From: Octopus vulgaris | Taxonomy: Eukaryota | Length of the DNA stretch: 64,000 nucleotides | Direction: 5' to 3' | Assembly: GCA_951406725.2 (NCBI GenBank) | Contig: OX597819.1 | Location: forward strand, 6,634,001-6,698,000 | Shown here: one piece after another, positions 10,805 through 30,376 of the stretch | How the letters are laid out: every line of letters starts with the position of its first letter | Numbering within the stretch: the first letter of the stretch is position 1 | Position numbers and translations under genes: made by a program | Notes under the pieces: model-generated | Databases searched by the model: none | Told to the model about the DNA's origin: nothing | Seen by the model: only the letters and a program-made list of their open reading frames with translations

Positions 10805-10905
10805 TCTTTACTGATGAAGTGTAACCCATGGTAGATTAGCTTAATTTTAATTTAATTAAGCTAATTTTACCATTAAAAACACCGAAACGATGCATCGTAT
10901 AAAGA
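10805..10905 (+). ncRNA. type I hammerhead ribozyme motif
   Basis: Stem I TCTTTA/TAAAGA; CTGATGA 10811-10817; stem II GTGT/ACAC extended by ATGGTAGATTAGCTTAATT/AATTAAGCTAATTTTACCAT; GAAA 10884-10887; stem III ACGATGCATCGT; GUA triplet. Confidence 0.85.
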
Positions 10906-12420
10906 TGAATTAGGGTAAACGTTTTTAAATTTTCACCTAATTTCTGAATTACTACTACTTAGCGGTTTGACTGCTCTCTCTAGTGGACGAATGGCCTATT
11001 AAGACCATTCCTAAATTGTTTAATTTATATATATATATATATATATATATATATATATATATATATATATACATACCCAAACGGCATTGCTCGTATTGAA
11101 GAGCGATGTTCGAAATACACCACGCACCCACGCACCCATGCAGCGGGATTGACCCTGGGTCTACGTGGTTGTGAAACAAACTCCTTTGCTGAGCCATGCC
11201 TCCACCCACCCTGTCCCTCTCTATTTACATTCAACTTCTCATCTCAACTTCTGTCCTCTCTTAAATCCCACTCTCTCTCTCTCCTCTCTCCCCTGCCCTT
11301 TCTCTCTCTCTCCCTCTTACTTCACTTTTTATATTTCTTTTTTATTTCCTCTCTCTGCGTCGTTTATCTCAACTTTCTTAGTTCCTAATTACCACTCACT
11401 TTTCTCTCAGACACTGCTTCCCGTATTCTTCTTCCTCTTCAATTTTCTCTCTCTTTCTCTCTGACTCCCCCTCAGTGTTTTCTTCTTTCTCTTTCTATTA
11501 TCTTCTCTTTCCTCTGCTCCTAAATCCCAATGCTATATATCAACTCATCCTGCCTGACTAATTTGTTATCTATCCTTTCAAATTCTCTAATATTTTTTCT
11601 CTCGCTCACTCTCTCTCTCTCTCTCTCTCTCTCTCTCTCCGTCTCGCTTTCTCTATCCCTCTCTTTCCCCTCTCTCTTCCTCCCCTCTCTCTCTCTCTCT
11701 CTGTCTATCACAGTGACATGTTTATGTATGTAATTTAGTTCAGATTTAAACAATGATAACAACTCCAGTCGTCACGAAAGTGGCTTGGTGGGGATACACG
11801 TGGAAATCTTGATACCAAAGAGAAATAAACAGTGTGTACAAAGTTTGGTTGAATACAGTCAAGTAAACACTCATTAAATTCAGTCAGAGTAATTAACAAT
11901 TAGCTGCTAAAATAGGTAATGACTCCATTAAGGTATGATCAAAAGCCATAACGATATACAAAGAGCTAAAGCCTCTTGCTCTTTGTTATTGTTTACTCTT
12001 ATCTGACCACTCAGTTTCATAATCTTGGTATCTAATAAGACCGTTTAAATCCTGAACAGCTTTATCAGGTCAACAAAACATTAGAATAGATTATGTATCG
12101 CTTCTACAAGCTAGAGAGAGCAACCACAATACCCCTGTTAGAAAGAGCAACCAAAATATCACCCAAATCATTCCTATTGTTTATGAAGAAAGGGAAGGAC
12201 ATATTAGAGAATGAAGTCCTGGTTGTGTTGTGCTTGAATGAAAAACCAGATGCTCAAGATATGAAACATTTGTTTCGGAAGTCTGCTGAACCAGAAATAA
12301 CCTACGTTTACATAACATTTTTTAAAGATTCCTATAACTGAATTTGTCAGTTTTGTATTTTGTGTCGTTTGAAATCACTTCTGGATTACTACTTTGTATT
12401 ATGTATATTCATACATAATT

Positions 12421-12635
12421 ATGGTTTCAAATTTTGTCACCAGGTCAGCCACTTGAGGGGAAGAGATTAAACCAATTACATCGACACCAGTACTCAACAA
12501 GTACTTATCTTATCGATCCGAAATGATGAAAGGCAATGTAGACCTCGGCAGCATTTGAATTTAGAACTCACAGCTGGATGAAATACTGCTAAGTATTTTC
12601 CCCGGTGAGTTAACAATTCTGCAACCCGTAGCCTT
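12421..12635 (-). mobile_element. SINE family C (Meta-like central domain)
   Basis: Complement of GCCGAGGTCGACTTTGCCTTTCATC..TCG..ATCGATAA..TAAGTAC; further copies at 44188-44312 and 48121-48340. Confidence 0.7.
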
Positions 12636-14787
12636 ATATTCAAACATAATAGTAAAATGGATTATATGTGTGAGGACCGGCCTCTCAAAGAATAAGCTCA
12701 ACATTTCCTCTGCTTATTGTAAAAGGCGAGAAAAAGAGGCTAAGATAGGATTTGCAGCCCGATCTCGTAAAACCCTCACCAGCATCGACTAACTAAACAG
12801 ACCCCATTAGTTAAAGGGTTGTCACTTGAGTGATTAAAAAGGTATCATCCGCCAGGAATAAGGAATCGCCAACAAATGGTGATAGCAGTGACACGCTATT
12901 ACAGTGCTGCTGCTGCTGCTGCTGCTGCTGATGATGATACTGCTGCTACTACACTGCTGGTGATGCTGCTGCTGCCACTACTATTACCACAACTACTACC
13001 ACTACTACCATCAAACAATTACGTAGAGGCTCCGCCGTTATTTGTGCAAATGTGAACTGCATGTATTCCGAACCTAATAAAAACAAAATAACAATTAACT
13101 ATTTTTGATTTACCTCTTATATTTTGAAGATTTCTACGCAATGAAATATAATTCTTTTACGCCTATGTACATTGATATTTTTATTGTGGATGCTCTATAG
13201 TGGATTGGATTTTCTGTGGAATATTACCGCTACTTATTTTTAGAGATATTATTGCTAAAAACCAAAAGTGGAAAGAAACTTAAATGCAACAAAATATCCA
13301 ATCTGGTGCTGTCACGTGAATCACTTCTTGATTGCAAAAGATTATGTATGACTTTTGTTATAGCTGAAGTCCGACATTGAACTGTCTAGCACAATAGTAG
13401 TACACGATAACAAGTAAATATGAACAATGAATCATCGTTATTCCAATGTAGAATGAATAACATGAAAGGGGAATAAATAGCAATAATCAATCCTATAGAA
13501 GGTGGTACAATGACTGAGTTGTTAACTTATTTTATATATTAAGATGTTTATAGCGTCATATCTGGAAGAATCGATCAATTACCGAACAAAAGAAGTAAGG
13601 CAAGGATATCCTTGCGTGGTCACTCAAACTAGCAGCCAAATCTTCCTCAAACTAGTCAGACCTATTGTAAGCAAGGACAAGAGACATCAGAAAATGTGGC
13701 TCTAGATATCCCTAAAAATGAGATGGTGTCGGCATCTTTAGTCTTGCGTCTTCTGAATGTTACCTCGATCAAAGAAAATCTTTTTTGTAGGATTTAGGAA
13801 GAATTTTACTAGGGTTAACTGCTTTATAGTATTTTATCTCGAAATGCGGTATATCTAAGTTAAGGCTCACTACTGTAAACAACGAGAGAAGTAAGAGGAA
13901 AACTTTTGAGTTTACAGAACTGATATGAAGATCACTAATGGGGGGTTGGCATAGTAGAAGTCGTAATGCCACAGCAATACTTCAATGAGGTGTTCCACAG
14001 GGGATAATTATACATTATATGCAACCTTAAAATGCTCATGACTAATTTGTTTTAAAATTTATCAGACAACCAGCAGAAAGTACGATCTGTACAGGACCAG
14101 TACAATAGCGATTCCGATACGCGTTAGATTATGCCAGGATATCCAAAGTACATCTCTCATAGTCAAACAAGGACTAAAAAACAACAATACTAGAATGAAG
14201 AACTATAGATTAATAGCTCATGTTCCCTCAACAATGCTTTAATACAACACTGTTTTAAAGCCGATCACAGCAAATTACTCTTAATCCAGCCTATTTATAT
14301 GTAGGCAATCATTGTTCACACTGCAAGCATCGGAACCAATGTTCAAAGGGTAAATATCTGTAACAAAGATACTACCCAAATGAGTATTTCTGACTTGAGT
14401 AGGGTTCCCAAATATGACTCTGAAAATGTATCATACACATTTAAAGAAAAAAATAGATGTAGCTGAATAACTAAGTATAAAAAGTTCCAAGATAGGGATC
14501 GATAAAACTGATTCACAGAAAAGCGAAGCATTATGTTTCCAGATCGTGAGTAAACAGCAACGGGTGAAGTCTATTTAGATGGCTTTTCCAAGATTATCAC
14601 TGAGTTCGAGATACACTTTTACCTGACGAACAGATCACGAGAAGCGAGACATTTCACTAAATAGAGTCGGTGTTCACTAACAACTAATTTACCTTATACA
14701 GAATAAGTATGCAAAATCTTAAAAGTATGCGGTTTACGTATATTCATCTATAGATCTATAGTACTATTTGACAGACAGACAGATAGA

Positions 14788-28670: not shown

Positions 28671-29299
28671 AGGAGGACATTCGTCAAGATCCTAGCTGTA
28701 TTTTCGCCAACTTATTTTTCACAGTGGCACCAGCGAATAGAAGTAAAAGTAAATTTTCAACCAAAACTTTTACCAATTTTTAAGCCGGAGAAATCACCAT
28801 TGTTTACAAACAGGAGTTAAGTCCCCTTCTAGTGACGAGTAAGTTTTTGATTAGACTTTTGTTAAGACTTTTTTGTTAAAACTTTTTCCATTGAGGAAAA
28901 ATGTGTTTTGTTGATATACGGGCAACACACACACACGAACATGTATGCGTATAAAAATCATGTATGCAATAGGTACGTGTGTGTATGTGTGTGTGTGTTG
29001 CCCATATATATATATATATATATATATATATATACACATATACTTAAGACTTAGTTGTGATCTGAACATAACCGCTTCTGACGGATCGGGAGCCCTTTTG
29101 GGCATTCTATTTTCTTTGCTGGAAGGGTTCCCAACCCATGAGCACAGGGGGAGGGTTAGATGATGGGGTGGTGTTTTCAAAGGGCTGACATGTGCAACTT
29201 GATCACCTCTGCTGATGAAACTCCCAACCCATGCACTCCCGAAGCGACACTGATTCTGCAGAACCGGGTTGAGTGTGAAAACCAACTTTAAAGTATAAA

Positions 29300-29777
29300 T
29301 ATAGATGTTTTTGAATCAGCAATACTGTGTTCGGTTAAGTCCTATTTGGGGTAAACAATCTGATTCCCTATGGGTTCTACATTTAATCAGGATAAAAAAA
29401 ATCGATAAACCGATTCCTTATAGGATTTGCCAATAAAATTTGCTACATCCCCATTTTCAACCATAACTTTTACCAACTTTGATGTATTTTGTTCAAACAT
29501 GATGCCAGCATTACTTAGGACTCATGGGATCTTTGAATGCTTTAAAGTTCTCCAAAACCGAAAAAAAGAATCGATGAGTAGAAAAATCGATAAATCGATT
29601 CCTTATGGGATTACCCAATCAAGCTGTCTGCATCTCATTTTCAGCCAAATGTTTACTAATTTCAACAGATTTCGCCCAAATTTGACGTCGATGTTACTTA
29701 GTTTGGTTTGAAATGAAGAACTTGATAAGTTTAATAATCCTAACTTAATCCCGGGCAAAGCCGGGCTATACTGTTAG
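29300..29777 (+). mobile_element. non-autonomous Helitron 3' portion
   Basis: CCCGGGCAAAGCCGGG hairpin then ATACTGTTAG|T; 5' limit uncertain. Confidence 0.5.
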
Positions 29778-30292
29778 TATTATATATATACATGGATGTA
29801 TATGTATGTATGTATGTATGTATGTATGTGTGTGTGTGCGCGTGCGTCTGTGTGTGAGTCTTTGAGTTTGTGTTTGTACCCCATCACCACTTGGCATCCA
29901 ATATTGGTCTGTTTACGGCCCAGTGACTTCTTTGTTCCTGCAATTCAATAAGTACAAGTTTTTACAAAATTACCTAATGGCATCTATTTGTTTGACTTAA
30001 AACCACAAGGCGATGCCCCAATATGGCCGCAGTTCAATGGGTGAAATTAGTGAAAGAAATTAGTGAAAGAAAATTAGTGAAAGAAATTTGTGTGTATATA
30101 TATATATATATATATTTATATATATATATACATATATATATACATATATATATAAACAAAGAGGGTAATAATATAATACCAGTGGCTCAGCACAAAAGAC
30201 GAATTAGTCATTAGAGATTTGAAAAGTTAAGATCTGCTAGTTGCTGAGATCAACAAATGGTCTAACGCGCTGCGCATCTCGATTCAATTTAG

Positions 30293-30376
30293 GCGTCTCG
30301 CTGATGAAACCAGCCTTAGCAAACATATTCTGTGTTTTGCTAGAAAGAGGTAGAAACTGATATCAGTCCGAGATGT
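30293..30376 (+). ncRNA. type I hammerhead ribozyme motif
   Basis: Stem I GCGTCTCG/CGAGATGT; CTGATGA 30301-30307; stem II ACC/GGT plus TAGCAAA/TTTGCTA; GAAA 30353-30356; stem III ACTGATATCAGT; GUC triplet. Confidence 0.85.

Follow-up and report, generated by a model that had tools for sequence, protein, structure and literature searches.

Three hammerhead motifs and the units that carry them

The 64,000-nt window analysed here, positions 6,634,001 to 6,698,000 of contig OX597819.1 (forward strand) in the Octopus vulgaris assembly GCA_951406725.2, contains three type-I hammerhead ribozyme motifs, H1, H2 and H3, each lying in a short repeat unit; all coordinates below are those of the window. 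H1 (10805..10905, + strand) has its core at 10811-10817, a 66-nt stem II insert, a stem III palindrome at 10887-10898, a predicted cut after 10899 and a stem I of six pairs (10805-10810/10900-10905). H2 (20840..20934, +) has its core at 20846-20852, a 60-nt stem II insert, a palindrome at 20916-20927, a predicted cut after 20928 and six stem I pairs (20840-20845/20929-20934). H3 (30293..30376, +) has its core at 30301-30307, a 45-nt stem II insert, a palindrome at 30356-30367, a predicted cut after 30368 and eight stem I pairs (30293-30300/30369-30376), six Watson-Crick and two G.U. All three possess the CUGANGA and GAAA boxes, an NUH cleavage site and three stems with stem I open, the hallmarks of type I, and in each of them stem III is a perfect 12-nt palindrome. 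A preliminary description of this DNA had named these stems I and palindromes, and we find them exactly where it placed them; it also ascribed to stem II a long hairpin that keeps its pairing, but the base of stem II is mismatched in all three motifs and the insert of H3 is shorter than those of H1 and H2.

These motifs are not chance occurrences. A descriptor that leaves the interior of stem III unconstrained detects six motifs in the window, whereas 100 Markov-3 simulations gave 0.08 on average and at most 1, none of them palindromic. An Rfam scan of the window returned no match at the gathering score, probably owing to the length of the stem II insert, and hammerhead families are absent among the 150 listed of 310 matches by E-value. 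The microRNA (miRNA) matches in the same scan were driven by microsatellites and were dismissed as noise. Strict descriptors miss hammerheads with a mismatched stem II base, and the later counts use a relaxed descriptor; across the genome such mismatches (A.A, A.G, A.C) are frequent and extend through whole families.

The unit around H1, a full monomer of about 470 nt (family 1; 10560..11025, +), lies between an (AT)n tract found by a tract scan at its 5' junction (10504..10566) and a (TA)n tract at its 3' junction (11026..11075), the presumed target, and is 92.6% identical to a natural unit at locus L012. The family-2 unit around H2 (20814..21057, +) is 5'-truncated to unit positions of about 226-467, is 95.9% identical to a natural unit at L039 and adjoins a (TA)n tract at 21059..21096. 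The H3 insertion (family 3) begins with an inverted 5' piece (30155..30215, - strand; 80% identical to unit positions 379-444 on the opposite strand), an inversion of Penelope type, followed by a 5'-truncated unit (30213..30477, +; 90% identical to a natural unit at L088) that ends in (TA)n at 30473-30501. Identity between families 1 and 2 is 75% across the whole 467-nt unit; the likeness of family 3 to either is limited to about 20 nt. Because this homology spans the entire unit, H1 and H2 share their ATGCAT centre by inheritance, and as homologues they count as non-independent. The 125 nt said to be shared downstream of H1 and H2 amount to 99 identical columns out of 130 aligned.

A first look at the genome yielded 1970, 1868 and 1039 candidates for families 1, 2 and 3, respectively, and the best 40 per family were scored; for family 1, the best 40 of 1970 gave 133 matches, many in tandem. 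The units are non-coding and multi-copy, with lengths of about 440-495 nt overall (469-474 nt in family 1, 489-495 nt in a sister family, and a spacing of 442 nt in family 3), and occur as single copies, as one unit with a tail of about 94 nt, and as head-to-tail arrays, the longest among the fetched loci comprising seven (L027) and ten (L280) units. Inverted arrangements are present at 17 of 30 fetched loci of family 1 and 18 of 30 of family 2, some of these loci overlapping a single insertion, and the outer ends of insertions in these two families are mostly two sites in the unit that adjoin (TA)n. Identity averages 99.3-99.5% within arrays and about 95% between them. Folded as circles, two of the units proved more stable than their shuffled versions (z = -4.1, 30 shuffles each).

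These properties match those of two kinds of element. Short non-coding units with one type-I hammerhead each, in tandem and dispersed copies, characterise retrozymes without long terminal repeats (non-LTR retrozymes), while Penelope-like elements are described (PMC8557442) as having a microsatellite target, 5' truncation or inversion and short-tailed partial tandems, all of which are found here. The units are therefore likely to be non-autonomous Penelope-type retrotransposons, that is, non-LTR retrozymes. A CTGGT...TACCCT-like tail motif recurs just ahead of the (TA)n junction in families 1-3, in a further family represented in the window (core 43675) and at L228:4200-4280; this common 3' tail is a candidate recognition site for the reverse transcriptase (RT) that mobilises the units. 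Assembled contigs from four sequencing runs, three of them taken to be RNA only by guess, partly cover one family-2 locus and show neither ends nor strand, so that they speak neither for nor against expression.

Pairing maintained in stems I and III

Hammerheads of this kind are abundant in the 2.8-Gb assembly of 227 contigs. Of 80 evenly spaced 10-kb stretches searched with the descriptor, 18 contained a total of 28 motifs, compared with one in the reversed control, and the 28 reduce to 20 insertion loci; extrapolation gives about 70,000 loci and 95,000 motifs, or roughly 10^5, a total that is only rough because descriptor matches cluster. One genome-wide pattern produced 9,796 matches against 1,977 for its control, and the pattern GAAAC-NNNN-GTH produced 18,032 against 1,446 when reversed. 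A further abundant family of minimal hammerheads, with a 4-nt palindromic stem III, was seen in the flanks of L007, L052, L087, L088 and L147.

That sequence changed while structure was held, as the preliminary description proposed, is borne out by an alignment of 15 natural copies picked to span the H1/H2 clade. In this alignment pairing is intact in 98.9% of the cells of stems I and III, and eight of the 12 pairs are altered on both sides. None of 500 shuffles reached its covariation score, whereas the number of further pair types did not exceed that of shuffles (351 of 500); these fractions are not probabilities, because the aligned sequences are related. Across families, the alignment of stem II was too poor for its pairs to be counted well. 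In a sister of family 1, a double change at the fourth stem III pair occurs in eight of the first 100 matches listed.

To separate pairing within a hammerhead from pairing between two of them, we inspected positions that are unable to pair within the hairpin of a monomer. The free tetramer of GAAAC-NNNN-GTH is palindromic in 73 of the first 100 matches listed (counted by hand; 7.3% expected by chance) and, in a check by script, in 24 of the first 30. Twelve different palindromic tetramers occur among those 100, and many of the 27 that are not palindromic are one change away from being so; since the 100 include copies of the same family, the 12 sequences carry more weight than the 73 copies. 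In the sampled stretches, 13 of the 16 loci eligible for this test have a self-complementary central dinucleotide, where chance predicts a fraction of 0.27 (P about 1e-5, with the loci partly related), and all four possible self-complementary pairs are represented. The other four of the 20 loci were set aside, three because their length is odd, two of these being palindromes with a single unpaired base at the centre, and the fourth because it spans only 2 nt.

Individual families display the same behaviour. One sister family, with 2,565 matches, most commonly has a GC centre (66 of the first 100 listed, none of which has GT), an AT centre occurs in 807 matches, and the mismatched AC centre is confined to 26 matches at eight loci. 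A shift of the central pair from GC to AT in this family supports selection for dimer pairing. The H3 family comprises 195 matches, and among the first 100 listed, a hand count gave 62 perfect 10-nt palindromes, 24 perfect 12-nt palindromes, nine palindromes that include G.U and five other variants, so that most relatives have a 10-nt palindrome, unlike the 12-nt one of H3. Self-complementarity of the loop centre is conserved where a monomer cannot pair, which supports selection for dimer pairing.

Secondary-structure predictions point in the same direction. Strand-swapped homodimers are predicted to be 12-17 kcal/mol better than two active monomers, and in the sister family the predicted gain falls from -17.1 kcal/mol with a GC centre to -13.2 with AT and -6.7 with AC. 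The active monomer fold has a predicted probability of at most 0.11 in all 18 motifs, since base pairing between the core and the 3' side of stem III tends to displace it. With no constraint imposed, the optimal homodimer structure is the double hammerhead in ten of 11 motifs of the H1/H2 clade, the exception being the AC form, and in one of seven motifs outside it. Together with the genome-wide upkeep of pairs that a monomer cannot form, these predictions favour the suggestion in the preliminary description that the palindrome serves a dimer, a function already in print for other hammerheads (PMC4209133, PMC3088659, PMC7229834).

A dimer model and its alternatives

We consider it quite probable that these type-I hammerheads belong to likely non-autonomous Penelope-type retrozymes in which the palindromic stem III, as modelled by folding, pairs two hammerheads on one tandem transcript into a cutting dimer. 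A tandem copy would be transcribed as an RNA longer than one unit, on which two hammerheads would pair through a stem III of 10-12 bp and exchange stem I strands, releasing a unit-length RNA that a host ligase could circularise. A lone hammerhead would be mostly inactive, and for this reason the circle would survive. A Penelope-type RT/GIY-YIG protein, acting in trans, may then prime at (TA)n and copy round the circle, which would yield partial tandems, arrays and 5' inversions. Selection would act on source elements, and most single genomic copies, these three included, are probably passive.

Penelope-type elements that could supply such a protein are present. Among 6,136 GIY-YIG candidates genome-wide, of which 148 were listed, there are intact 781-aa open reading frames (ORFs) encoding RT and GIY-YIG, with an upstream ORF; the 781-aa product scores 28.9 bits for RVT_1, just below the cut-off of 29.6, has a detected GIY-YIG domain and bears a CxxxxCxxC linker as in Neptune/Nematis. 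These autonomous elements end at (TA)n and have, about 80-90 nt before the end, a candidate U3-A8 minimal hammerhead whose palindrome spans 6 nt and whose stem I is weak. A young intact example at L222:1480-6271 comprises an upstream ORF of 473 codons, the 781-aa RT/GIY-YIG ORF and the hammerhead candidate, at whose palindrome the 5' end of the element begins. Its 3' region contains what we take to be repeated CCAAT-like and cAMP-response-element (CRE)-like boxes and a TATA-like box. In the window, coding fragments of a Penelope-type RT/endonuclease at 8534-8833 (-) and 35367-35721 (+) are about 50% identical to the 781-aa protein.

Several observations weigh against the dimer model or narrow it. 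Apart from neighbouring insertions, no homology to families 1-3 was found in 50 GIY-YIG loci (30 + 20) drawn from the 148 listed of 6,136, and nine further stretches with Penelope fragments contained no common tail or hammerhead link to these families; since the examined Penelope-type loci provide no sequence link, the mobilising partner is one that we infer. The mismatched AC form is present in four multi-unit arrays, and full central pairing is thus not strictly required. The best pairs of units from different arrays reach 99.2-99.6% identity, which equals the level within arrays, and local tandem expansion is an alternative source of arrays. At the base of stem II, the 10.1-11.1 pair is A.C in H1 and H2 and A.A in H3; natural hammerheads with mismatches at this pair are reported (PMC3088659, PMC7229834), and relatives of H2 have G-C there. 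The energies describe secondary structure, with tertiary contacts ignored and no monomer-active hammerhead as a control, and for six of the seven motifs that do not belong to the H1/H2 clade the optimal dimer structure is more stable than the active dimer by 2.2-11.8 kcal/mol, the difference being 2.4 kcal/mol in H3. A monomer is also predicted to be able to form a 4-bp stem III with a tetraloop.

This last fold is the basis of the alternative that the hammerheads act as monomers and that the palindromic loop was inherited from dimer-dependent ancestors or arose through mutation bias, such as template switching or AT slippage. Invertebrate retrozyme hammerheads are indeed reported to cleave as monomers (PMC7229834), which also counts against the dimer model; the H1/H2 centre is shared through descent; and the change from 10 to 12 nt in family 3 amounts to an AT duplication. 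Neither descent nor bias readily accounts for 12 different palindromic tetramers, for the TGCA/TATA double change within a homologous family at positions that a hairpin cannot pair, for the GATC/AATT and CCGG/TCGA double changes, where homology was judged by common stem I and flanks, or for the rarity of the AC intermediate, and correction by fold-back would, by our reasoning, leave the adjacent central bases unrepaired. We therefore regard monomer action as unlikely. A different objection is that other machinery, either a long interspersed nuclear element (LINE) that targets microsatellites or rolling-circle or tandem amplification at the DNA level, spreads the units with the hammerhead as a passenger. 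The lack of homology between the units and the Penelope-type loci examined would fit this explanation, as would the suggestion that hammerheads may simply parasitise such elements (PMC8557442). However, partial tandems with short tails, 5' inversions and (TA)n targets fit the Penelope anatomy described in the same source, and the genome's own RT/GIY-YIG elements show these features too, leaving the passenger explanation with a low probability.

The preliminary description went beyond a dimer in cis and proposed that palindromes pairing in trans act as a subfamily recognition code, by which self is told from non-self and the RNAs to be processed together are chosen. The predicted energies are in part suggestive, as homodimers gain 12-17 kcal/mol and heterodimers among H1, H2 and H3 gain nothing (+0.4, +2.5, +1.8), and many insertions have one hammerhead or two inverted ones, for which pairing in trans would be the only option. 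Yet one palindrome is common to families only 65-81% alike in their flanks, two palindromes occur within one family, and cross-pairing is predicted between H1 and the GC sister family (-13.3 kcal/mol, compared with -16.7 for the homodimer) and between H2 and L134 (-7.9 kcal/mol). Compensated divergence in stems I and III would by itself produce orthogonality, and because the dimer also exchanges stem I strands, partial orthogonality is expected without selection for it. Moreover, since excision of a unit needs two hammerheads per transcript, source elements always have a partner in cis. Chimeras at the cut site, a possible trace of heterodimers, gave no clear signal in eight representatives, a weak test in which some upstream windows were out of register. 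Diverged families with one palindrome, predicted cross-pairing and the cis partner in tandem transcripts lead us to set the code aside as very improbable. A bolder version would have the palindrome and swapped stem I of dozens of families serve as passwords in trans, with inert single copies activated only by cognate RNA, new subfamilies escaping cross-activation or poisoning through a password change (from GC to AT via the rare AC) and password-sharers parasitising each other's ribozymes; it is a speculation to which we give little credence.

Neighbouring elements and known hammerhead systems

Besides H1-H3, the window holds a fourth hammerhead at 9537-9650 (+), from another family, with a 78-nt stem II insert, an 8-nt stem III palindrome and an inverted piece near 9280. 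On the - strand, a hammerhead with its core at 43675 lies in a partial-tandem unit (about 43340-43960) that ends at (TA)n; it has the CTGGT...ACCCT 3' tail of families 1-3 and a stem III one mismatch away from a palindrome. A further hammerhead element (36720-36790 (-) and 36993-37302) has an odd-length palindrome with one unpaired central base, and its 5' end is a 154-bp inverted repeat. A short element at 7590-7847 that resembles a miniature inverted-repeat transposable element (MITE), in which a microsatellite is flanked by long terminal inverted arms, is the source of a spurious Rfam miRNA match, and the repeat search of the whole window was dominated by microsatellites. Frames at 720-1130 (-), 55460-55873 (-), 14796-15245 (-) and 57222-57641 (+) are presumably mariner-type transposase and LINE RT remnants, which they resemble.

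Evidence that repeat hammerheads act as dimers has so far come mostly from in vitro experiments in which the stems were very short. This genome amounts to a natural experiment, with about 10^5 motifs, many families, and compensated changes and intermediates that can be counted, and the counts indicate selection on loop-centre pairing during retrotransposition even where the length of stem III would allow it to fold by itself. The form with a long stem II is missed by Rfam, and for this reason similar elements in other genomes may be under-annotated. In addition, the natural palindromes, being nearly orthogonal, would be ready-made components for RNA switches that depend on concentration.

The closest relatives are the animal non-LTR retrozymes (PMC7229834; bioRxiv 10.64898/2026.07.22.740005), which, as described there, likewise consist of non-coding tandem units that are short and low in GC and contain a single type-I hammerhead, occur as monomers, dimers and multimers and coexist with Penelope-like elements; in axolotl, 126,247 motifs are reported, a number similar to the roughly 10^5 found here. 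The octopus units, at 440-495 nt, are longer than the roughly 170-400 nt given by Cervera and de la Pena (2020; PMC7229834) and fall within the 51-972 given by Li, Clavereau and Pollet (2026; bioRxiv 10.64898/2026.07.22.740005). Unlike the animal retrozymes of PMC7229834, they have a 45-80-nt insert in stem II and a 10-12-nt palindrome as stem III in place of 1-2 bp and a tetraloop, and unlike reported animal retrozymes they form many diverged families in one genome.

Palindromic hammerheads proposed to act as dimers, which are reviewed in PMC6765202, are a feature of two further groups. Cervera and de la Pena (2014; PMC4209133) described metazoan type-I hammerheads with a palindromic loop 3, dimer action, many families and compensatory changes. 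These minimal hammerheads, from the pseudo-long terminal repeats (pLTRs) of Penelope-like elements, resemble ours in being type I, in the palindromic 15.2-16.2 and loop 3, in the many families per genome and in the proposed dimers, and their U3-A8 core variant also occurs in this genome's autonomous element. In contrast to them, H1-H3 reside in units whose length leaves no room for an RT gene, are equipped with a complete stem III and a far longer stem II, and have no homologous pLTR of an autonomous element among the 50 loci examined. Perreault et al. (2011; PMC3088659), in the legend to their Fig. S8, noted a palindromic stem III and loop in several repeat ribozymes and, for Aedes, a 10-bp stem within a hypothetical dimer; here the stem reaches 12 bp and is accompanied by genome-wide counts of compensated change and of an intermediate. 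Among the papers listed in literature searches, with thin coverage of subscription journals, no title or abstract described these long-stem families or a recognition code, and Lunse et al. 2017 may include similar variants. Dimer pairing by a palindromic stem III is thus already published for repeat- and Penelope-associated hammerheads; in the octopus, where the natural evidence for it is unusually clear, it probably takes an unusually long form of stem and palindrome and occurs at very large scale.

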